Positions 2,001 to 33,622 of a DNA stretch of 38,587 nt are shown here, piece after piece; the stretch's first letter is position 1, and every line of letters starts with the position of its first letter. The translations under genes and the position numbers were made by a program. The notes beneath the pieces are model-generated. The model saw nothing but the letters and a program-made list of their open reading frames with translations. It did no database searches and was not told where the DNA came from. Source of the stretch: a virus (Duplodnaviria; Heunggongvirae; Uroviricota; Caudoviricetes); IMG/VR virus record IMGVR_UViG_3300029650_000167. One strand, given 5' to 3'.

Positions 2001-2297
2001 TCAAATAGAGAAATAAACACAAAAACAAAAAACAACAGGAACAGCAAAATCCAACAGACTTCCCACATCCCACACGCGTGGATCAAAACCTCCCCACCAC
2101 GGCATGTTGATACGTTTCCCTTTCCCAAACTTTTCTATCCAGCGATATTCTGCCTGGGTGTGTTCACGCGCAATGAAGAACGTACAACCGGCTATCGCAC
2201 CGTAAGCCCAGTTTCCGGTAAAAATACCAACCAGTACCTGAGCCACAAAAGCGCAAAGCGAGTGAAGAAATGGAGTGACATCAATGCTCTTAATCAT
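2001..2297 (-). CDS. small membrane protein, translationally coupled to tailspike
   Basis: 98 aa hydrophobic protein; start ATG overlaps tailspike stop (ATGA); AT-rich; function not recognised. Confidence 0.4.
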   Translation of the reverse strand: MIKSIDVTPFLHSLCAFVAQVLVGIFTGNWAYGAIAGCTFFIAREHTQAEYRWIEKFGKGKRINMPWWGGFDPRVWDVGSLLDFAVPVVFCFCVYFSI

Positions 2298-4483
2298 GAA
2301 ACTTCCCCATTGGTTGAAAATATGGCTCCTCCAACGCCAAGTGTATTTCGTGTTGTGCTCAACCTCAGAGGGCTGGAGTCAGAATTAGAATATCCTGTAG
2401 CAGAAATAAAAGATCCTCCACTAATAGTCAACTGCGGAACATCGGCTATATCTGAATAAGTTCTGTCAGCAACAGTATTATTTATAGCCACATATGATCC
2501 AAAAAAACTTCTTATTGTTTGGTTTTTAACTTTACTTCCTTCAATGGTTATCCTACTACCACAGTCGGCAATAAATCCTGAATCTGCATCCAGCGTTGCA
2601 TTCATAAAAGAAGCTTCAGATCTCTCTACATCAATCCATCTAATATCTTTTGTGGGATTTGCACCAAATACATGACAAATATTAGAGTTAAACCTTACAC
2701 CATCTTGGAGGTGCATTAATTTTTTTATATCTGTACCCCATAGCCTTGGAAAATTAACAGATGCTCCTGCATGGCAATCAAATCCCAGCTCAGCCCCTGA
2801 GATATCTACAGCCTTTCCTGAAATAACAGCACCAGTGTCTGCATTAACGGCTGTTCCACAATTGCGCATATCATTACCAGCAACATCAACGCAACCCGCA
2901 CCATCAATACGCACACCAAGTGCACATCCATAAAAACCTTTTTCAATATTTGGTTCAAGGACTTTACCACTTGTTTCTGCATCACTTTCTTCAACGTCAT
3001 GTCGTCTTGCATCAACATATGCTGTATGAATGCAGGTTAATCCACGATATGAGCAATGTATAGTTTTATGGTCGCGTATATTAACATTTGAACCATCTCT
3101 TACATTCCATCCTATATAACAATAGCTTGCACTTGACCCCTGAAAATCTGCTTTAACATTATAAATACAATTAACTGACGCAACCGTACTCTCTGTGCAC
3201 CGTTCAAACTTGCTTACAGGCATTGATGCCTTGACATTATTTACCAGTTGCAGGGAAGAGTATCTGCTATAAGAAAAATCACATACGTAATACCCTTCTG
3301 GCATATATGCAGCAACACTTTCCTCATCAGGAGCACATCCGGTATGATATGCACTAATTTTTGCACCAAAACTACCATGAATTCCAACGTAGAACTTTCG
3401 AGCACCTGAATACGGATAGAAATTAAGTTCAGCTTTTTGAGTTACAATAAATGCACAAACATCGCTATCATCTCTATTTTCTTCGATCTGAATAGCAAAT
3501 ACAGGACTTTTTGCTGCATCGCAAATGTAAAATAAATACTTGTATTCGTAATACGTTCTAACGATTTTAGTAAACAAACGAGTGTCAGAGAAAACCACTG
3601 AGTCTTCTGATGTTATTTTAATCCAAGACAAATCAACACCTGAACTGAATTCAATTTGATAGTTGATAATATGCCCGGTCTTAATTCTTATTTCGCAGAA
3701 AGCATTACCACCATCCCACATAGGTCTCATTGACTGGGCTGCAATGATTGCATCTTTGAGTGTAGGGTAATCACCCCATTCGCCAACAGTAATAACAAAA
3801 GTATAATATGAGTTAAAAACAGCGGCATTTTTGCCTTTGGATATCAACTCCTTAATCATAAAAATATTATCTTCGTAATCACAAGGAGAAATTATATCCC
3901 TCATTTTGCTTTGAAATGTTCGTTGTCTTGCCCCGCTTCCTGACGGTATAAACCAACCAAAACCACCAACAACCCCGGCGATTGCAGCATCGACATAATT
4001 ACGCATTGAGCGATTATTTACAGCGTCCTGCTCAAATGATGGATCTGCAAGGTTAGAAATTTTGTTTTGCTTTGCATCGTAATATTTTGCAAGCAAAGAT
4101 GGTTTCATCAATGCACGTCTGAACCACCCAAAACATCGCTGGATCAGCATCGTCAGGTAGTCAAATGCATCTTCATGAACTTCGGGGAAAAATTTTCCCT
4201 GATTGCGAAGATCAGTCTCCTGCACCACATCAAGCACACGCTCTATCGTAATTCGCCAGCCAGCAGCAAGCGGCGACGGGAGAACCACAGAACCGCCACT
4301 ATAAGTGCCCGCCCCAGTTACCGTATAACCGGTATCCAGAACCAATTCTGTTACGTTCCCGTTCAGGTCAGACACCTGAACAACCAGGTCTGATTTTTTG
4401 AAAATACGGAAGGTATACGGAAACGATGTCGTAACGCCGTTACCGGTGTATTCGTTGTGGTCAACTTCGGTTGAGACCGTCAT
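2294..4483 (-). CDS. tailspike / receptor-binding protein with beta-helix-like C-terminal region
   Basis: 729 aa; SD GGAG 8 nt before ATG; N-terminal about 110 aa in typical GC composition, remainder AT-rich with Gly/Asn/Ser/Thr-rich repeats suggesting a beta-helix depolymerase-type domain. Confidence 0.7.
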   Translation of the reverse strand: MTVSTEVDHNEYTGNGVTTSFPYTFRIFKKSDLVVQVSDLNGNVTELVLDTGYTVTGAGTYSGGSVVLPSPLAAGWRITIERVLDVVQETDLRNQGKFFPEVHEDAFDYLTMLIQRCFGWFRRALMKPSLLAKYYDAKQNKISNLADPSFEQDAVNNRSMRNYVDAAIAGVVGGFGWFIPSGSGARQRTFQSKMRDIISPCDYEDNIFMIKELISKGKNAAVFNSYYTFVITVGEWGDYPTLKDAIIAAQSMRPMWDGGNAFCEIRIKTGHIINYQIEFSSGVDLSWIKITSEDSVVFSDTRLFTKIVRTYYEYKYLFYICDAAKSPVFAIQIEENRDDSDVCAFIVTQKAELNFYPYSGARKFYVGIHGSFGAKISAYHTGCAPDEESVAAYMPEGYYVCDFSYSRYSSLQLVNNVKASMPVSKFERCTESTVASVNCIYNVKADFQGSSASYCYIGWNVRDGSNVNIRDHKTIHCSYRGLTCIHTAYVDARRHDVEESDAETSGKVLEPNIEKGFYGCALGVRIDGAGCVDVAGNDMRNCGTAVNADTGAVISGKAVDISGAELGFDCHAGASVNFPRLWGTDIKKLMHLQDGVRFNSNICHVFGANPTKDIRWIDVERSEASFMNATLDADSGFIADCGSRITIEGSKVKNQTIRSFFGSYVAINNTVADRTYSDIADVPQLTISGGSFISATGYSNSDSSPLRLSTTRNTLGVGGAIFSTNGEVS

Positions 4484-4678: not shown

Positions 4679-4936
4679 ATGCAGCAGTATCACTATCCAC
4701 TGGAAGACGGATTTACCGAAAGGATTCACACGCCGGGAGGCGTCAGGTCACTGGTGGAGGGATCGCATTTGATGAAATTACTCCGGGATCTCGATAAGGA
4801 TGGATTTAATGTCGATGGCCCACTTGCCGAACTGACTGCACTGATTAACTACGTCACCAGCTCACAGATGTCTATGCAGGATCTGCAAACACATCTCGAC
4901 TATTGTGCCGAACAATTACGAAAGCAAACCAGATAA
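4679..4936 (+). CDS. small LexA-controlled protein, antirepressor-like domain (paralog of Bro-N protein C-terminus)
   Basis: 85 aa; SD GGAG 8 nt upstream; residues HTPGGVRSLVEGSHLMKLL...DGFNVDGPLAELT...QTH align with the C-terminus of ORF 5252-5962. Confidence 0.5.
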   Translation: MQQYHYPLEDGFTERIHTPGGVRSLVEGSHLMKLLRDLDKDGFNVDGPLAELTALINYVTSSQMSMQDLQTHLDYCAEQLRKQTR

Positions 4937-4967
4937 GGTTTGCAATTACCAAGTGGAGTGCTTATAT

Positions 4968-4982
4968 TTACCTTTGCGGTAA
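4968..4982. promoter_or_regulatory. operator-like palindrome TTACC-TTTGC-GGTAA
   Basis: Perfect match to the dispersed 15-bp motif, between the small LexA-box gene and the Bro-N gene. Confidence 0.5.
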
Positions 4983-5062
4983 ATTTACATCGCACTCCTC
5001 TTGTGCCATAGTAATCAGGCACTGGCAAAATCCAGTGCCGGGATTGGCGTCCCGAGTTACTA

Positions 5063-5085
5063 AGTGGCGCATACCACGCCAGACG
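5063..5085 (+). terminator. rho-independent terminator-like hairpin
   Basis: Stem ACCACG/CGTGGT with 5-nt loop followed by seven T. Confidence 0.45.
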
Positions 5086-5251
5086 TGGTTTTTTTATGCG
5101 TTAAGCACAGCTATATCCGAATTATGGTGGGCTGGGCAGGGGTCCGAAAGGACGCCGGTACCACTTAGGCCGGTACGCCAACCTTGTCCAGTTCACCACC
5201 AGTAATTGGCGTTGCGGTGGTGATTAAAATCACTAAGTGGAGATAACCACC

Positions 5252-5962
5252 ATGGCTAATGCTCAAACTGCCATCTTCAAATTTGAATCTGTTAACCCTA
5301 TCCGTTCCATCATTATCGATGGCCAACCATGGTTTGTAGCCCAAGACGTTTGTAGTGCGCTGCGCATCCAAAACGTCACCCAAGCACTTGAAAAACTGGA
5401 TGATGATGAAAGGTCTATGTTCAACATAGGGCATGAACATCGTGCAATTTTTGACAGCCGAGTAAAAGAGATCAACATCATCTCCGAGTCAGGCCTCTAC
5501 ACACTGATCCTCCGCTGCCGCGACGCAGTGACACCAGGCACTATCCCCTACCGCTTTCGTAAATGGGTTACAGGTGAGGTTCTTCCTCAGATCCGCCGCA
5601 CCGGAAGTTACATTAAAAACTCGCTCCCGCAGGAAGAACGCATAAAGATGGTTGCCGACCAGGTAGCCAACGCCACGGCGTCAGCAGTAATGCAGGCGAT
5701 GAAGATAGAGAACAAAACCTACAGTGCCCCACTGAAGCCCGGCTACCGTAGCCTGATTCATTCGCCGTCTGGTGTTCTCGGCCTGACGGAGAACTCACTG
5801 CTGATGAATCTGCTGAACCAGTTACAGGAAGACGGGCACGACGTATCGGGCGCGGCGGCGGAGCTGACCACCATGTTCTGCTACATCGTCGGTGTGAGCA
5901 AATGCCTGCGTGATATCCAGACCCACGCGGAGTACATCAACGACAAGGCTGGGTTCTTCTGA
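5252..5962 (+). CDS. Bro-N domain protein, putative antirepressor
   Basis: 236 aa from ATG 5252 (SD GGAG 9 nt upstream; track shows GTG at 5237); N-terminal FKFE...IDGQPWFVAQDVCSAL...ESGLYTLILRC resembles Bro-N/KilA-N; C-terminal about 70 aa paralogous to ORF 4679-4936. Confidence 0.6.
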   Translation: MANAQTAIFKFESVNPIRSIIIDGQPWFVAQDVCSALRIQNVTQALEKLDDDERSMFNIGHEHRAIFDSRVKEINIISESGLYTLILRCRDAVTPGTIPYRFRKWVTGEVLPQIRRTGSYIKNSLPQEERIKMVADQVANATASAVMQAMKIENKTYSAPLKPGYRSLIHSPSGVLGLTENSLLMNLLNQLQEDGHDVSGAAAELTTMFCYIVGVSKCLRDIQTHAEYINDKAGFF

Positions 5963-5999
5963 CGGGCGGCGGCACAGGGATGTGCCTTTAAAATAATCA

Positions 6000-6029
6000 T
6001 TGGCGATGTGATGTAGATTCGCGTAATAT
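6000..6029 (+). promoter_or_regulatory. sigma70-like promoter (TTGGCG - 18 bp - TAATAT)
   Basis: -35 and -10 hexamers at canonical spacing immediately followed by the operator palindrome at 6029. Confidence 0.4.
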
Positions 6030-6043
6030 TACCTTAAAGGTAA
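6029..6043. promoter_or_regulatory. operator-like palindrome TTACC-TTAAA-GGTAA
   Basis: Perfect motif directly after the -10 and directly before SD AGGAGG of ORF 6056. Confidence 0.55.
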
Positions 6044-6055
6044 AGGAGGCGCGAT

Positions 6056-6223
6056 ATGACAGCGTTGAAAAATCGTACTCAGCACAATGAACAAGCCAAG
6101 CAATGCTGGGATGTCATTGGAAAAGTTATGCTTGGCCGCGCAAGCAAAGAGCGCGACAAGGATATGGTTTACCAGACAGGAACATCTTTCAGCGACTTCA
6201 AGGCGGCATTTCGCTCCAAATAG
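6056..6223 (+). CDS. small hypothetical protein (55 aa)
   Basis: Strong SD AGGAGG 6 nt before ATG; below the ORF-track size cutoff; basic, no TM segment. Confidence 0.4.
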   Translation: MTALKNRTQHNEQAKQCWDVIGKVMLGRASKERDKDMVYQTGTSFSDFKAAFRSK

Positions 6224-6243
6224 AAGCACATCAGGAGTTTTCC

Positions 6244-6684
6244 TTGAAGTTTAACATTAGAATATCTAATAGTTTTCTACATGGGGAAAGCAACACCCCT
6301 TTCGCTGTAGACGGACCTTTCCTTACTGATGATGAAATAAAAATCATACAAAGTTTTTTAGAGGATGTTGCCAATGGAAGGGCGCTTGTTGGAAAAAACA
6401 AGCCCTCATGGGTTGATGATAACCATGATAAAATTCCCGGCTCAGACAATTATGAGCAAGAGAATTATTGGCATTATCATTGTGGGCCAACATGGTATCC
6501 AAACACATTTAAGAATTATACCATTAACTTAAATTTCAACCCTAGCGGAAGGCATTCTAATGAATGCATTCATTATGCAAAAAATGATAATGAAATTGTC
6601 ATTGTTGGATTTTCAAGAGAACACATACCTTTCCTTTCATCAGATGGAAACAACAATCCGCTTTTTAATGATGAAGAAGAATAG
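6244..6684 (+). CDS. hypothetical protein, AT-rich moron (start uncertain, possibly TTG)
   Basis: Open frame from 6103 to 6684; no internal ATG after the upstream small ORF ends, TTG at 6244 is preceded by GGAG; about 33 percent GC versus about 52 percent for the phage; followed by a strong terminator. Confidence 0.4.
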   Translation: MKFNIRISNSFLHGESNTPFAVDGPFLTDDEIKIIQSFLEDVANGRALVGKNKPSWVDDNHDKIPGSDNYEQENYWHYHCGPTWYPNTFKNYTINLNFNPSGRHSNECIHYAKNDNEIVIVGFSREHIPFLSSDGNNNPLFNDEEE

Positions 6685-6704
6685 CCCGCGCTGCGGGCTT
6701 TTTT
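6683..6704 (+). terminator. rho-independent terminator
   Basis: AGCCCGC-GCT-GCGGGCT hairpin followed by TTTTTT. Confidence 0.7.
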
Positions 6705-6776
6705 GTGGACGAAACAAAAGTCAGTGCTACACTCATTGACGCCACATTGAGGTGGCTTATAGATGGAAATTTCACA

Positions 6777-6938
6777 ATGAAAAAAGCATTTGCTGCACTG
6801 TTCGTTTTGTTGTCTCTGGTAGCTTCAACTCAGGCCTTTGCCGGTCGTTGTCAGCACGACAGCGACACTGCCGCTGACGGCTCCCGCTGCGGTGGGCGTT
6901 CTGCGGATTCCCGCCCGGGCGGCGGTGGCATTCGTTAA
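6777..6938 (+). CDS. small secreted peptide (signal peptide plus about 31-aa Gly/Arg/Asp-rich mature region with two Cys)
   Basis: MKKAFAALFVLLSLVASTQAFA looks like a Sec signal peptide ending at an AxA site; internal ATG of the track ORF 6705-6938. Confidence 0.4.
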   Translation: MKKAFAALFVLLSLVASTQAFAGRCQHDSDTAADGSRCGGRSADSRPGGGGIR

Positions 6939-6960
6939 AAACAAGGCCGCGAAAGCGGCC
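6934..6960 (-). terminator. rho-independent terminator for the minus-strand membrane-protein gene
   Basis: GGCCGC-GAAA-GCGGCC hairpin; on the minus strand it is followed by TTGTTTTT. Confidence 0.5.
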
Positions 6961-6961
6961 T

Positions 6962-6973
6962 GTGACATGTCAC
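6962..6973. other. perfect 12-bp palindrome GTGACATGTCAC (copy 1 of 3)
   Basis: Identical 12-mer also at 24567 and 26832; overlaps the TGA stop of the minus-strand ORF 6970-7266. Confidence 0.5.
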
Positions 6974-7266
6974 GTCCCTTTTCTGAATGATAGCCATTCG
7001 AAAAATGATGACATTCCACCGCAGACAATAGCAAAGATGATCCCACCAAAGAAGAGAAGGCCAGCCTGCCACCACTCCCACCGCCATACATCCACAGCGC
7101 CAACCATACCAACAATCGCTCCAACAAATGGAATATAGCTCACGATGAAAGCAATGGGGGCTGCAATTATCCAGTGCAATCCCCACCATGATTCAAGCCC
7201 AGCCATAATTGCTGCCAACTGAAAAAGACCAACGACGATATAAACAATGAATCCTATAGCTTGCAT
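6970..7266 (-). CDS. small integral membrane protein
   Basis: 98 aa with three hydrophobic segments and several Trp; function unknown. Confidence 0.45.
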   Translation of the reverse strand: MQAIGFIVYIVVGLFQLAAIMAGLESWWGLHWIIAAPIAFIVSYIPFVGAIVGMVGAVDVWRWEWWQAGLLFFGGIIFAIVCGGMSSFFEWLSFRKGT

Positions 7267-7278
7267 GTAGTCACCTAT

Positions 7279-7458
7279 TTACCCAGTAAAAATAAGAGGC
7301 CTCCCCTCAATAAGGCTTGCAACAAGAACTACTCCCTGCACAACAAAGATGAACCAGCAAATAGCTTGAGTCTGAGGGTTAAGAAAATATTTGTAGCGGT
7401 CAATAAATAACAATCCACCAGAAATTATCACACTCAAAATAATTAAAAACACAACACT
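7279..7458 (-). CDS. possible small membrane protein (GTG/TTG start)
   Basis: 59-codon hydrophobic ORF in the same frame as, and immediately after, the stop of the 824-aa gene; no clear RBS. Confidence 0.2.
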   Translation of the reverse strand, partial: SVVFLIILSVIISGGLLFIDRYKYFLNPQTQAICWFIFVVQGVVLVASLIEGRPLIFTG

Positions 7459-7461
7459 TCC

Positions 7462-9936
7462 TTATTGCGGAGTGACATCCTGAGGTCGCCACCAGTATGT
7501 CTGGTTAAACTCTTTCTTCGAACGTTGCTCCATTTTACGCAAATAGCCTGGTGAAAAATACTCCTGCATCTGATTAAAGATCATGTGATCGAGAGCCGCC
7601 TTCAAGTACCAGAGATTCGCACCTGGCATCAAACCTTTCCCCAGCTTCACCAGATCACCACCAGTCTGCTCACTCTTCCCTTCCACAGCATTTAGCGGTA
7701 TGCCCTGAGCTATCTTCACTACGTCATCAACCAGACCAGCTACCGGGCCAAGCATCGACGCCAGCGCGCCGCTCCCGTACCTAGTGTGATCTGACAATAA
7801 AAAGTCACCGTAAAGGCCAAGACCACCACCTTTCAGTAGAGCACCAAGCCAAAATTTAGCAGCATCTTCTCCTGTCATCTCTCGAGGATTACGACCAGAC
7901 GCAAGGTCGTTAAGTTGTTGCGACAAAGCGCCAAGAATGGTCGTACTGGCAATAAACGTCGCAATATATGCCGCACGCCCACCAGCAGACGGCATACCCA
8001 TAGCGCGTGACCAGTGACGCATAACAACCGAGATAGGGAACGATTTAAACAGGAAAACACTTCTCGTTAATTCACCTTTCCATGTTCCACGCTGAATACC
8101 AGAACCGGTTATCAGTTGCTCACGTGCTCCCGGTGTAATAACAGCCATATCAACTTCTTCAGTTACGGCACCGAGCAGTTTACGCATTGCCTCAAATTTC
8201 ACGCGTTCAGGCTCACCAAGATGTTTAACTGCTGAATCAGGGATACGCATAATGCTTTCCGGTGTCAGCATCGTATTATTACCGTTCCCCCAGTCCTCCT
8301 GTTGCGCCAACTTCCATACGCTCCAGTCTGTGTCAGTAATCCCTTTGCTTTTCAGGATACGAAAATCAGAGTCATCGAGGCGACGAAGGTCTGGTGTCCG
8401 TGACACTACTTCTCCCAGGCTTCCCATCATGGTTACGCCATAGGCGCGCTTGTGCGCATCTGACCATGCTGTAAGCCCACTGGCACGCATTACCGCCGTT
8501 GCAGCCCAACGAGACACAGACGGCCCCATATTATCCATCGCCCAGCGGTTAACGCTGCCAAGTAGAGATTCCATCGCCAGACCAGCGCGGCGCGCCCGCG
8601 CAAGTTCTGTACGGTTCGTTGGGTCCATAGCTTCAAGCTGGTTGCGGAATAACTGGTTCATTGGAAGGTTGGTAACCTTCGCAGACAGATACATGGTTCC
8701 AAGATCAGAGAACGATGACAGCAACGCGGATCCGAGTCTGCTGGCAACCAGCCAGTTGCGGATATTGTCAGACCATCGCGCGATGTGCGGATTCGCTACA
8801 GGCTGTGTCTTTCCGGAAATAAAGTTGTACAGATTCTCTGTGTTGTTCGCCAGCCGCTCGACTTTACCGGTTTTACTCGGGTTAGCTGTTGCCGTTTCTG
8901 CCTTCACCTGATCAAGAAGAGAGCGGAAAACATGATCGGGGTTTGGACCATATGTTTCCACCAGTGCAATATCTTTACTGATACCTTCCAGGTGACCGAC
9001 CATGATTTCCCATAGAGAGCGATCGCCATAAAGTTGCTGATATTGCAGATAGGAATCTGCATCTTTGAAATGTATCTGTCGTGATGCATTACCACGGTTA
9101 GCACGTGCGCCGGAAATTCGCATTCCGGTATCAGTAAGCTTATTCAGCCCACCAGTAGCGATCGTGTTATAAGCCTCTCCAAGAAATGCAGACAACTCGG
9201 CATCGTTCATCAGTTGTCCATCGGCTCGGGTATAATATTTGCGATCCAGCTTACCTATAACATCGCTAACCCATTTATCTTTTGATACCGCCCCAACCTT
9301 TTCCATAGAATGATGTTGAGGGATCCCCCAGTTTTCGAGATAGCCAATGTCCCCACCAGCATCATTAAACCGGCGGCGCAGTAGCTCTGTCACTTCTCTC
9401 CACGCCTTAGCACCTTTTCTTGCTTTAGCATTGCCAGTATTTTGCCCCCGCATTTCATATACCAGGTCACGTACGCCAGCTTCATCTTCAAACAGACCAA
9501 AAAAGCGAGGATCAACTGCTTCGAATGCCTCCTGCAATTGACTCAATGCATAATCACGGGTGGCTTTTGTTCTGGATTCAACAGAGAGGAAATTCGATTT
9601 ACCGTCTGCATTAAAAGCAATAGTACGGTTAAGAGCGCCAAGTTTCCCATCAGCCCCTTGATAGCTATTGATAAATTTATCCAATCTCTGACGTGCGGCT
9701 ATAGTGAGGGCCACACGACGTTTCTTTAATGCCGCTTCTCGCTGTAATTCTTCAGATGCCAATTGTGCTGCACGATACAGCCGCTCTGATTCGGAAAGTT
9801 GTCGCCACGACATCGGGTCATCACGAGCAATGGAGCGCATATTTCGATAAATGCGGTCTTCAATGTTCTGTATTTCTCGCGCCGTTAACGTGCGCTGCGC
9901 CGCCTGCTGGACCGCTTGTATACATTCCTGTCTCAT
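7462..9936 (-). CDS. internal virion / ejection protein (large)
   Basis: 824 aa, last large gene of the core series before the moron island; assignment by size and synteny with T7 gp16-like proteins, no motif recognised. Confidence 0.5.
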   Translation of the reverse strand: MRQECIQAVQQAAQRTLTAREIQNIEDRIYRNMRSIARDDPMSWRQLSESERLYRAAQLASEELQREAALKKRRVALTIAARQRLDKFINSYQGADGKLGALNRTIAFNADGKSNFLSVESRTKATRDYALSQLQEAFEAVDPRFFGLFEDEAGVRDLVYEMRGQNTGNAKARKGAKAWREVTELLRRRFNDAGGDIGYLENWGIPQHHSMEKVGAVSKDKWVSDVIGKLDRKYYTRADGQLMNDAELSAFLGEAYNTIATGGLNKLTDTGMRISGARANRGNASRQIHFKDADSYLQYQQLYGDRSLWEIMVGHLEGISKDIALVETYGPNPDHVFRSLLDQVKAETATANPSKTGKVERLANNTENLYNFISGKTQPVANPHIARWSDNIRNWLVASRLGSALLSSFSDLGTMYLSAKVTNLPMNQLFRNQLEAMDPTNRTELARARRAGLAMESLLGSVNRWAMDNMGPSVSRWAATAVMRASGLTAWSDAHKRAYGVTMMGSLGEVVSRTPDLRRLDDSDFRILKSKGITDTDWSVWKLAQQEDWGNGNNTMLTPESIMRIPDSAVKHLGEPERVKFEAMRKLLGAVTEEVDMAVITPGAREQLITGSGIQRGTWKGELTRSVFLFKSFPISVVMRHWSRAMGMPSAGGRAAYIATFIASTTILGALSQQLNDLASGRNPREMTGEDAAKFWLGALLKGGGLGLYGDFLLSDHTRYGSGALASMLGPVAGLVDDVVKIAQGIPLNAVEGKSEQTGGDLVKLGKGLMPGANLWYLKAALDHMIFNQMQEYFSPGYLRKMEQRSKKEFNQTYWWRPQDVTPQ

Positions 9937-23440: not shown

Positions 23441-23508
23441 ATCAATGACTCCGTACGCAATTAAATTATTACCAATTTAACCATATATGATTTATTTATC
23501 GTAGATAG

Positions 23509-23545
23509 TTGACATTTAACGCGCGAATTATTACCTTTCAGGTAA
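23509..23545 (+). promoter_or_regulatory. promoter (-35 TTGACA) with overlapping operator palindrome TTACC-TTTCA-GGTAA
   Basis: Consensus TTGACA at 23509-23514, 16 bp later the perfect operator motif (23531-23545) occupies the -10/+1 region; points toward the tRNA. Confidence 0.5.
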
Positions 23546-23867
23546 CTAAAGAGTTCATTCCGGTTACTAACCTGACTGGCCTGTCGTTAAATTGAACAGG
23601 TGGAGTGAGCTTTTATTTTGAGCAGTACGGCGTATGGCACATGCGACGATAGCGGTCTGGATACGTTTAAGTGGCACCCTCCCTTGCTCGGGCAAACGAA
23701 CCAGGTAGCCGGAATGTGCAAGTCGAGCGGTTTTATTCCGCGCACGGGGATTCACCATCCCGGCGATTCGGTGTGACGCCTCGGAAGAGACGAGGGTACA
23801 ACGATGAGAGCATTTATGGAGCCGCGACAAAGTGTGGCGCCTTAACAGGCTAAGTGCTCTCAGCGTT

Positions 23868-23944
23868 GTGGCATTAGCTCAGTTGGACAGAGCAACCGCC
23901 TTCTAAGCGGTTGGTCGCAGGTTCGAATCCTGCATGCCACGCCA
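23868..23944 (+). tRNA. tRNA-Arg (anticodon UCU, reads AGA)
   Basis: Hand-folded cloverleaf: acceptor GTGGCAT/ATGCCAC, D-arm GCTC/GAGC, anticodon stem ACCGC/GCGGT with loop CTTCTAA, T-arm GCAGG-TTCGAAT-CCTGC, discriminator G and encoded CCA. Confidence 0.85.
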
Positions 23945-32518: not shown

Positions 32519-32749
32519 TCATGAGTAGAAGAAGTATGCCAGTTCTGCTTTTGAGCGCAGCCATTGTCTTGATTTACAGGCTTTAAAAAGCCCATCCATC
32601 AATACCTTACCTGGCATTTTGCGCTTACCTGTTAAGTGAGTCTGGATATAGTGACTCGTCGTTCCGGCTTCCTGTGCGAAGGCTTCACGCTCATCCGGAG
32701 TAAGTGCAAGCCAGTGCTTTTTGAAATCGAAATGTCCGTTATCGCTCAT
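32519..32749 (-). CDS. Cro-like HTH regulator
   Basis: 76 aa, divergent from the repressor gene; HTH-like stretch EAFAQEAGTTSHYIQTHLTG. Confidence 0.5.
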   Translation of the reverse strand: MSDNGHFDFKKHWLALTPDEREAFAQEAGTTSHYIQTHLTGKRKMPGKVLMDGLFKACKSRQWLRSKAELAYFFYS

Positions 32750-32903: not shown

Positions 32904-33488
32904 ATGAAAAGTATCCAGGACGTCCGCAGGCAAAATCTCAACGACTTGATCGACCGTGAATTCAATGGTGTTCAGACGCGGATGGCTGAAAAACTTGGAA
33001 CTCAGGCAAATCTGGTAAACCGCTGGGCTCTTGGCAAGAAGGTTATCGGCGACCAGGTTGCACGAAAAATTGAAGCTGCCGCCAATAAACCCCGTAACTG
33101 GCTTGATATCGATCGCTCGCTTTCTCAGGAAGGTTTTCAGCCTGTCGGCCCAAGCGACATTGGCCAGCTGGCGGCTCACAACCTGGAACGCTGGATGAGC
33201 GAAAGCCGCGACCTTTCAACACAGGGAAAACTTCACCGCGCATCCGGCGTAGCCCAGGTGACAATCAGCCGCCTGTTAAACAATGAGGTCAGCGTTTCCA
33301 TTTCCACCCTGGAGAATGTTGCATCCGCATTCGGGCGTCACGGCTATGAATTACTGATTCACCCGCACGACCCTGCGACCATCAACTATGATCGCTCGCG
33401 CTACGCATTGTTACCCGAAACCGAGAAAGCAAAGATCGAAAGTTACATTGAATTTGTCATCAACCAGAACGAAAAAAACAAACAATAA
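32904..33488 (+). CDS. prophage repressor with tandem XRE-type HTH domains, no peptidase domain
   Basis: 194 aa; two HTH-like segments (TRMAEKLGTQANLVNRWALGKK and ASGVAQVTISRLLNNEVSVSISTLENVA); no Ser/Lys S24 autocleavage motif; divergent from cro-like gene. Confidence 0.7.
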   Translation: MKSIQDVRRQNLNDLIDREFNGVQTRMAEKLGTQANLVNRWALGKKVIGDQVARKIEAAANKPRNWLDIDRSLSQEGFQPVGPSDIGQLAAHNLERWMSESRDLSTQGKLHRASGVAQVTISRLLNNEVSVSISTLENVASAFGRHGYELLIHPHDPATINYDRSRYALLPETEKAKIESYIEFVINQNEKNKQ

Positions 33489-33607: not shown

Positions 33608-33622
33608 TTACCTCAACGGTAA
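33608..33622. promoter_or_regulatory. operator OL-like site (TTACC-TCAAC-GGTAA)
   Basis: Perfect motif at the predicted transcription start of the plus-strand early operon. Confidence 0.55.

Follow-up and report, generated by a model that had tools for sequence, protein, structure and literature searches.

Background

The paaA2-parE2 toxin–antitoxin genes are controlled by their own regulator, PaaR2; phage P1 carries dispersed C1 operators and P2/P4-like elements have hot spots for defence genes and other cargo. The RegB protein of phage T4, about 150 amino acids (aa) long, uses histidines and is structurally related to RelE and YoeB. Here we present a computational analysis of a 38,587-nucleotide stretch of viral DNA (IMG/VR record IMGVR_UViG_3300029650_000167, below called the window), centred on a two-gene cassette, orfA-orfB, at positions 6000-6705. 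We are inclined to think, with somewhat better than even confidence, that this is a type II toxin–antitoxin-type cassette and a new, possibly YafO-like, module of the RelE/ParE superfamily. A survey from 2025 lists 13 Pfam families of monodomain BECR toxins, and gives the antitoxin-before-toxin order for YafO, YafQ and the ParE/RelE family (PMC11980606). A literature search by accessions, PHROG identifier, TL-2011b and Uetakevirus found no description of the orfA/orfB cassette.

The window represents, in almost complete form, an E. coli temperate phage, an epsilon15-like podovirus (Uetakevirus), and has a GC content of 49%. Over 1.6 kb around the cassette its identity is 100% to Escherichia phage HEMP4 and 98% to phiv142-3 (Uetakevirus), and parts of this region recur in TL-2011b and other E. 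coli phages. To the left lies a tail spike/fibre gene (2294-4483, minus strand), and to the right, from 7462 onward, large virion/injection proteins are encoded on the minus strand, including an 824-aa virion protein. The immunity region is far from the cassette and comprises the gene of a 194-aa HTH_3/Cro-C1-type repressor (32904-33488) and a divergent cro-like gene (32519-32749). A preliminary description of the sequence had treated positions 5963-7461 as one moron island. All the features it listed were found in their places, but they form three separate units instead of a single one: a cargo slot holding orfA-orfB, a separate peptide moron and two membrane-protein genes.

Results

The orfA-orfB cassette

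The 55-aa frame with an AGGAGG ribosome-binding site (RBS), pointed out in the preliminary description, proved to be a real gene with homologues, orfA, and it is followed after a gap of 20 nt by orfB (Table 1). In E. coli genomes the annotation pipeline PGAP adopts this gene model of orfB as well. The low GC content reported for this gene was upheld, although the figure is 35.1% and not about 33%, and the strong terminator described behind it is present. The cassette shows the marks of a moron, that is a promoter-like site of its own (P3), its own terminator at 6683-6705 and a deviant composition of orfB. A TTG start of orfB was found in 13 out of 18 distinct relatives; together with the ATG start and strong RBS of orfA this conserved TTG would fit synthesis of the partner in excess over the toxin.

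Predicted fold and invariant residues of OrfB

Homologues of OrfB formed 34 clusters in a word-indexed search, all described as "hypothetical", and an exhaustive profile search brought the family to 121 clusters at 50% identity. The family is mostly phage-borne and occurs in Enterobacterales, Pasteurellaceae, Neisseriaceae and Aeromonas. Across 94 of its sequences three histidines, H77, H79 and H127, are invariant, and 90% or more of the sequences share G50, N52, K53, S55, Y78, Y111 and F130; the motifs formed are GKNKPSW, WHYHCG, IHY and S-x-x-H-x-PF.

The AlphaFold2 model of OrfB, built on a 26-sequence alignment, reached a predicted local distance difference test score (pLDDT) of 92.6 and a predicted template-modelling score (pTM) of 0.87, and was reproduced in a second run. 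Using this model in a Foldseek search of PDB, we noticed that toxins ranked first, with target-normalised template-modelling (TM) scores of 0.5-0.63 and without a significant E-value (best 0.28). A structure search of BFVD with the same model found nothing. Profile searches of PDB sequences with two OrfB-family alignments gave no meaningful match, and OrfB matches none of the 13 monodomain BECR families listed in PMC11980606. Judging from the model, a RelE/ParE (BECR)-type alpha/beta fold is probable rather than certain. The product which the preliminary description could not place in any family is in this way placeable at the fold level; from the profile and structure searches suggested there, sequence profiles gave nothing, while the structure model was RelE/ParE-type with non-significant E-values. 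The invariant histidines argue for a ribonuclease (RNase), and on their account a ParE-type gyrase poison, also considered, is unlikely.

Pairing of orfB with an upstream partner

In Pectobacterium, Serratia and Erwinia the gene immediately before the orfB homologue encodes a clear OrfA homologue (E 1e-13 to 1e-26). A longer gene, of 62-215 aa, takes this upstream position in Klebsiella lambdoid prophages, Proteus, Pasteurellaceae, Neisseriaceae and Aeromonas; it carries the same C-terminal segment, and the partners of Pasteurellaceae and Neisseriaceae have 160-215 aa and end with the OrfA motif. This motif consists of an arginine, R28, invariant in 15 aligned partners, followed by Y-x-x-G-x-S-F-x-D-F…A. 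The model of OrfA has a long helix and a short C-terminal helix and is non-globular (pTM 0.35).

A profile of the OrfA C-terminus, made from four Enterobacterales sequences, was searched against 3,284 open frames. No matching frame was found outside the position upstream of an orfB homologue, with a similar outcome of the reverse search; beyond close relatives, only upstream frames of Haemophilus and Klebsiella were matched (E 0.005-0.3). In 74 of 77 viral contigs from IMG/VR the orfB homologue is preceded, at a distance of 0-22 nt, by the end of a motif-bearing frame (E<1e-3), and none occurs elsewhere among the 2,947 frames of these contigs. About 20 genome loci likewise have the partner motif directly upstream. 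Complete E. coli genomes gave the same picture: orfA-orfB is present in 77 out of 5,426, in every case with both genes and in a chromosomal position.

The pair was found in very different surroundings. In epsilon15-like prophages of E. coli, Pectobacterium and Serratia it follows the Bro-N antirepressor gene, in Klebsiella lambdoid prophages it occupies the nin region, and in P2/HP1-like prophages of Haemophilus and Actinobacillus it is situated between tape-measure and baseplate(-spike) genes, inside the late operon. In one setting it stands next to a polyvalent MuF protein, small Proteus contigs carry it together with a replication (Rep) gene, and on the Erwinia chromosome it is found alone, as a two-gene insertion between accA and an mtnA-like gene. 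Such joint travel through unrelated settings resembles, by analogy, the behaviour of toxin–antitoxin modules and similar selfish cassettes. We also noticed that in Pasteurellaceae loci (L019, L027 and related ones, at about 2400-3440) the orfB homologue accompanies a long partner of about 185 aa.

The cargo slot and its leader

Some part of the region is carried by 541 of the 5,426 complete E. coli genomes (about 10%), and its comparison revealed a slot with exchangeable content. Its borders, the Bro-N gene with the hairpin behind it on the left and the terminator with the 53-aa peptide gene on the right, are all conserved. In TL-2011b the same leader and terminator enclose a 59-aa gene (gp45) and a YafO-family toxin gene (gp44, PF13957 E=8e-6). 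Other E. coli prophages hold here a 108-aa gene with a DUF2335 membrane protein, a single DUF4760 protein, or an overlapping pair of 72 and 125 aa devoid of known domains, which could be another uncharacterised two-gene module. BLASTP and hhalign detected no similarity between OrfB and the YafO-family toxin of TL-2011b, and none between OrfA and gp45. Compared with the PADLOC defence models, no slot cargo gave a match.

In every slot variant, as well as in the Pectobacterium and Serratia prophages, a -10-like element is followed by a TACC-N5-GGTA palindrome. Since this leader is retained with every cargo, the promoter and operator belong to the slot and not to the cargo. We rejected the possibility that OrfA regulates its own genes through the palindrome at 6030, because this palindrome persists next to unrelated cargo and agrees with the sites that surround the repressor gene. 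A separate observation concerns the -35 region and spacer of P3 (5990-6023), which are locally replaced: the window and HEMP4 have TTGGCG-18-TAATAT, phiv142-3 and TL-2011b have TTGCAG-17-TACTAT, and the sequence on both sides of the replaced stretch is identical between these two groups.

Dispersed operators and the antirepressor block

The palindrome is not confined to the slot. Its motif, TACCTNNNAGGTA (TACCT-N3-AGGTA), has 12 sites in the window at no more than one mismatch, with 0.44 expected, and none of 100 shuffles reached 12. Four of the copies bracket the gene of the helix-turn-helix (HTH) repressor at PR- and PL-like positions. The majority, among them the PL, PR and tRNA-promoter copies and those of the sites designated P1 to P3, directly adjoin a -10-like hexamer on its downstream side; at 33609, for instance, TTGACA-17-AATTAT directly abuts the operator TACCTCAACGGTA. 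At the level of sequence the dispersed palindrome can thus be taken as a confirmed repeated operator, and it is natural to presume that the main repressor would bind its copy at 6030-6042. The arrangement suggests that one repressor controls many scattered promoters, like C1 in P1. In the promoter-operator pair proposed by the preliminary description the operator therefore stood firm (12 sites against 0.44), while the promoter is present but weak, with 8 of 12 consensus positions and no call in the promoter scan.

Two further copies deserve mention. The one at 8982 is inside the 824-aa gene and may be a chance occurrence. The copy at 23532-23544 directly follows a good TTGACA-17-AATTAT promoter in the region 23500-23944, and downstream of it lies a tRNA-Arg(TCT) gene (23868-23944, plus strand), which may be a repressor-controlled phage tRNA.

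Directly to the left of the slot, isrK, C4 and Bro-N stand behind a promoter with an operator copy and constitute an antirepressor module of the P1/P7 immI type in an epsilon15-like podovirus. The isrK–C4–Bro-N module is also present in APSE phages (PMC7313666). The cargo slot is the last unit of this repressor-controlled plus-strand accessory block and continues the immI-like region, a context that the preliminary description did not mention. The hairpin between the antirepressor gene and P3 is, from its sequence, probably a weak terminator. Upstream of the module, an 85-aa open reading frame (ORF) at 4680-4936 (plus strand, phrog_450), with the operator copy 4589 in front of it, resembles the C-terminal half of the neighbouring Bro-N antirepressor; it could act as an antirepressor domain standing by itself, or else compete with the antirepressor.

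Genes to the right of the slot

Behind the cassette terminator there is a gene of a secreted peptide, and here the earlier prediction of a signal-peptide ORF with a 31-aa two-Cys mature product was confirmed. The signal peptide consists of MKK, a hydrophobic core and AFA|G as the processing site, and the mature part is rich in Gly, Ser, Asp and Arg. An identical protein, WP_000708858.1, is found beside every cargo type, and its distribution is limited to the epsilon15-like phages infecting E. coli and Klebsiella. With a promoter-like site that lacks an operator, and with a terminator of its own, the gene fits a separate conserved moron. The terminator that closes this unit lies in a stretch of about 59 bp whose match is annotated as a terminator in the phiV10 record.

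The convergent small membrane proteins announced earlier are two, of 98 and 57 aa. Klebsiella phage BUCT711 has both frames open and of unchanged length, and the differences from it by codon position (6/1/45 in the 98-aa gene, 10/6/18 in the 57-aa gene) are concentrated at third positions, as in coding sequence. The 57-aa ORF is left unannotated by PGAP in identical E. coli prophages and is probably a missed small membrane-protein gene. Among Pfam, NCBIfam and PADLOC searches with all five small proteins of the region the sole match was a sub-threshold holin-like one for the 98-aa protein (E=0.027), which is not evidence. Given that both genes share the strand of the late operon and that 9 nt separate the stop of the 824-aa virion gene from the start of the 57-aa gene, they are probably the tail end of the late (virion/ejection) operon. 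Their assignment to the cargo was rejected, as they abut the late operon and are conserved together with it; the view of the region as horizontally acquired cargo with its own control elements holds for the plus-strand genes and probably not for these two. A terminator-like hairpin with TTTTT was noticed at 7293-7309 (minus strand), overlapping the 57-aa ORF at its 3' end, shortly ahead of the 98-aa gene, and it may attenuate transcription between the membrane-protein genes.

Table 1. Features of the cargo slot and its surroundings (positions in the window, except for the last row, where they refer to the loci named)
Feature	Position	Strand	Basis and remarks
Operator copies	4589, 4969, 6030, 8982, 23532, 30460, 30522, 32450, 32787, 32835, 33547, 33609		motif scan
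Promoter-like site TTGCAA-17-TATATT, then operator TACCTTTGCGGTA (4969-4981)	4939..4981	+	heads immI-like antirepressor operon
isrK-family small RNA	5019..5095	+	Rfam RF01394, 67.2 bits (gathering score 50)
C4 antisense RNA, P1/P7 immI-type regulator of antirepressor genes	5120..5203	+	Rfam RF01695, 66 bits (gathering score 45)
Bro-N antirepressor gene	5237..5962	+	Pfam Bro-N E=1e-19; left of every cargo variant
Hairpin GGCACA-GGGA-TGTGCC, then TTTAAAA	5971..5986	+	kept in all slot variants
Slot promoter P3, TTGGCG (6000-6005)-18-TAATAT (6024-6029)	6000..6029	+	read from sequence
Operator copy TACCTTAAAGGTA, consensus of the dispersed repressor sites of the phage, directly after -10	6030..6042		sequence
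orfA, 55 aa	6056..6223	+	ATG start, AGGAGG RBS 6044-6049; phrog_8607; homologues found
orfB, 146 aa	6244..6684	+	TTG start, AGGAG 6233-6237; phrog_5954 (PHROG without assigned function)
Intrinsic cassette terminator, stem 6683-6699 (7 bp, 6 GC pairs), then TTTTT	6683..6705	+	terminator scan; right slot border
Promoter-like site TTGACG-16-TATAGA, without operator	6736..6763	+	putative, read from sequence; uncalled by scan
Gene of secreted 53-aa peptide	6777..6938	+	phrog_14503
Bidirectional intrinsic terminator between converging units	6944..6961		terminator scan
98-aa membrane protein, 3 hydrophobic segments	6970..7266	-	phrog_3075; last late-strand gene
57-aa membrane protein, 2 hydrophobic segments	7279..7452	-	open frame; starts 9 nt after stop of 824-aa gene
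Alternative-cargo loci in E. coli prophages	L039 1915-2501; L037 1712-2513; L038 1962-2501		same slot

Discussion

Proposed function and rival explanations

From the three roles offered in the preliminary description, the toxin–immunity pair is favoured because of the RelE/ParE-type fold, the invariant histidine triad, the obligate upstream partner and the YafO-family cassette in the sister slot, while lysogenic conversion is the least likely for this cassette, given its repressor gating. OrfB would be a divergent RelE/ParE (BECR-fold) toxin, most probably an mRNA-cleaving endoribonuclease that inhibits translation, with a predicted active site composed of H77, H79 and H127 together with H110/Y111, akin to the use of histidines in YafQ and YafO. 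OrfA would be its cognate neutraliser, binding OrfB through the conserved C-terminal segment. With the operator placed directly after the slot promoter, expression of the cassette is expected when repressor is absent: both genes would be transcribed from P3 upon infection or induction, or through leakage from the single operator, and read-through from the antirepressor operon past the hairpin at 5971-5986 may add to it, whereas the pair would stay largely silent in a stable lysogen. As long as OrfA is in excess it would hold OrfB inactive; after its depletion OrfB would cleave mRNA by means of the histidine site and translation would stop. The likeliest role of such a pair is a toxin-based weapon or insurance around the lytic switch, with translation or host shut-off, abortive infection directed against competing phages, and killing of cells which lose repression or the prophage as candidate forms.

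Several results speak against this toxin–antitoxin proposal. OrfB has no match in Pfam (E<=1), NCBIfam or PADLOC, and none of 94 members of its family matched the Pfam RelE/ParE-superfamily models at E<=0.01. The presumed placement of H77, H79 and H127 on the RelE active site follows secondary-structure order only. OrfA contains no Pfam or NCBIfam domain and no recognised DNA-binding domain, and canonical autoregulation is absent, as the operator is that of the phage. P3, with its 8 of 12 consensus positions and no call by the scan, is alone no better than chance. Finally, repressor control and the nin and late-operon positions in other phages would suit an enzyme of the lytic cycle no less well than a module for addiction or defence.

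The same caution applies to kinship with YafO. As TL-2011b has a YafO-family toxin in the same slot, a YafO alignment was built for one planned profile comparison, in which hhalign gave a probability of 4% (P=0.01) over 51 aligned columns, non-significant by the usual standard and a further point against the proposal. Within the aligned part L-T-x-x-E, G-K-N and W-H-Y-H of OrfB pair with L-[ST]-x-x-E-L, G-R-D and A-H-I-H of YafO. A relaxed hhalign run paired the families end to end, with 116-126 columns in order; it set HxH against HxH, Y111 against Y88 and H127 against H109, and also TS..IHY of OrfB against TSD.HLVY and S-P-x-H against K-P-x-A-H. Neither OrfB nor its 93 relatives match PF13957, which recovered the controls E. 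coli YafO (1e-39) and TL-2011b gp44 (8e-6). These motif correspondences suggest a distant YafO-like relationship, without establishing membership in the family.

The most serious competitor of the toxin–antitoxin proposal is that OrfB is a lytic-cycle endoribonuclease which, like T4 RegB, cuts host or phage mRNAs early after derepression, with OrfA as a partner for timing or specificity, and that the two do not serve as a toxin–antitoxin module for addiction or defence. The cassette stands behind a copy of the phage repressor operator, homologues occupy lambdoid nin and P2/HP1-like late tail regions, which are transcribed in lytic growth, and the fold with its histidine triad fits such an RNase equally well. 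We regard this explanation as unlikely. It is improbable that the RelE-like fold is a coincidence or a generic small alpha/beta arrangement, OrfB being a non-toxic accessory protein (e.g. a regulator or virion-associated) and OrfA merely co-transcribed. The best PDB E-value of 0.28, the empty BFVD search and the lack of any matching RelE/ParE-superfamily sequence model are what one would expect in that case, and the position of the Pasteurellaceae pair between tape-measure and baseplate genes is in line with it.

A role in counter-defence, in which OrfA or the pair would neutralise a host toxin or immune system early and OrfB would be a decoy or an enzyme destroying a host signal, appears to us very improbable. 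In its favour, anti-defence genes are typically expressed early, under repressor control, from accessory slots of high variability, and no slot cargo matches a PADLOC defence model. However, no similarity to known anti-defence proteins was found, all fold matches are toxins, and strict co-inheritance, extending to a non-phage chromosomal site, better fits a self-contained toxin/antidote pair.

The proposal of a toxin–antitoxin cassette can be carried further, to a version which we put forward only tentatively and which is rather doubtful as a whole. According to it, the pair would found a new toxin–antitoxin family, with a histidine-triad toxin and an antitoxin defined by a short C-terminal motif set on 25-190 N-terminal residues. 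Self-regulation would have been given up for a plug-in slot held by the repressor, making the pair a phage-timed weapon of translation shut-off and not a standing defence of the lysogen, and the slot would be a cargo hot spot belonging to the lytic-switch regulon, unlike the constitutive defence hot spots of P2/P4.

If the toxin–antitoxin proposal is true, the RelE/ParE superfamily gains a family of about 120 clusters at 50% identity, one that is undetected by current Pfam, NCBIfam and PADLOC models and in consequence overlooked when pipelines annotate toxin–antitoxin and defence systems. A cargo hot spot of epsilon15-like prophages would be defined as well, in which every cargo is under a repressor-controlled promoter, a simple test case for whether phages time the expression of toxins to the lysis–lysogeny switch. 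What is gained is incremental, as prophage RelE-type modules and cargo hot spots are already well known; what is probably new here is the family within the superfamily, the partner family and the unusual mode of control.

Comparison with known systems

The nearest counterpart is YafN–YafO, a type II system of E. coli with a BECR-fold toxin and the antitoxin gene placed before the toxin gene (PMC11980606), an order shared by OrfA-OrfB. The order of motifs in OrfB also appears YafO-like, with an L-[ST]-x-x-E helix, G-[KR]-[ND], HxH, TS..(I/L)xY and [SK]P-x-H, while an insertion of 25-30 residues is additional in relation to YafO. DinJ–YafQ, YefM–YoeB and RelB–RelE have toxins that are RelE-family ribosome-dependent mRNA interferases; OrfB is about 60 residues longer than these toxins and has no sequence similarity to them, and OrfA possesses no ribbon-helix-helix (RHH), Phd or other DNA-binding domain, with no autoregulatory operator evident. 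Among RelE/ParE-superfamily pairs carried by prophages are PaaA2–ParE2 (E. coli O157:H7) and PfiT/PfiA (Pseudomonas); ParE toxins are without RNase catalytic residues and hit gyrase, whereas OrfB keeps the histidine triad; in contrast to PaaA2–ParE2, the control element of OrfA/OrfB is the main operator of the phage.

With the hot spots of P2/P4 the slot shares a fixed position between conserved genes and many unrelated cargoes across E. coli strains. It differs from them in the absence of PADLOC matches and in that each cargo inherits a repressor-controlled promoter. As in the immI region of P1/P7, a C4 antisense RNA, here with isrK, precedes the antirepressor gene behind an operator-bearing promoter, and, as with the dispersed C1 operators of P1, the main operator is scattered in front of accessory genes, in this case as a 13-bp palindrome in a podovirus of the epsilon15 group.

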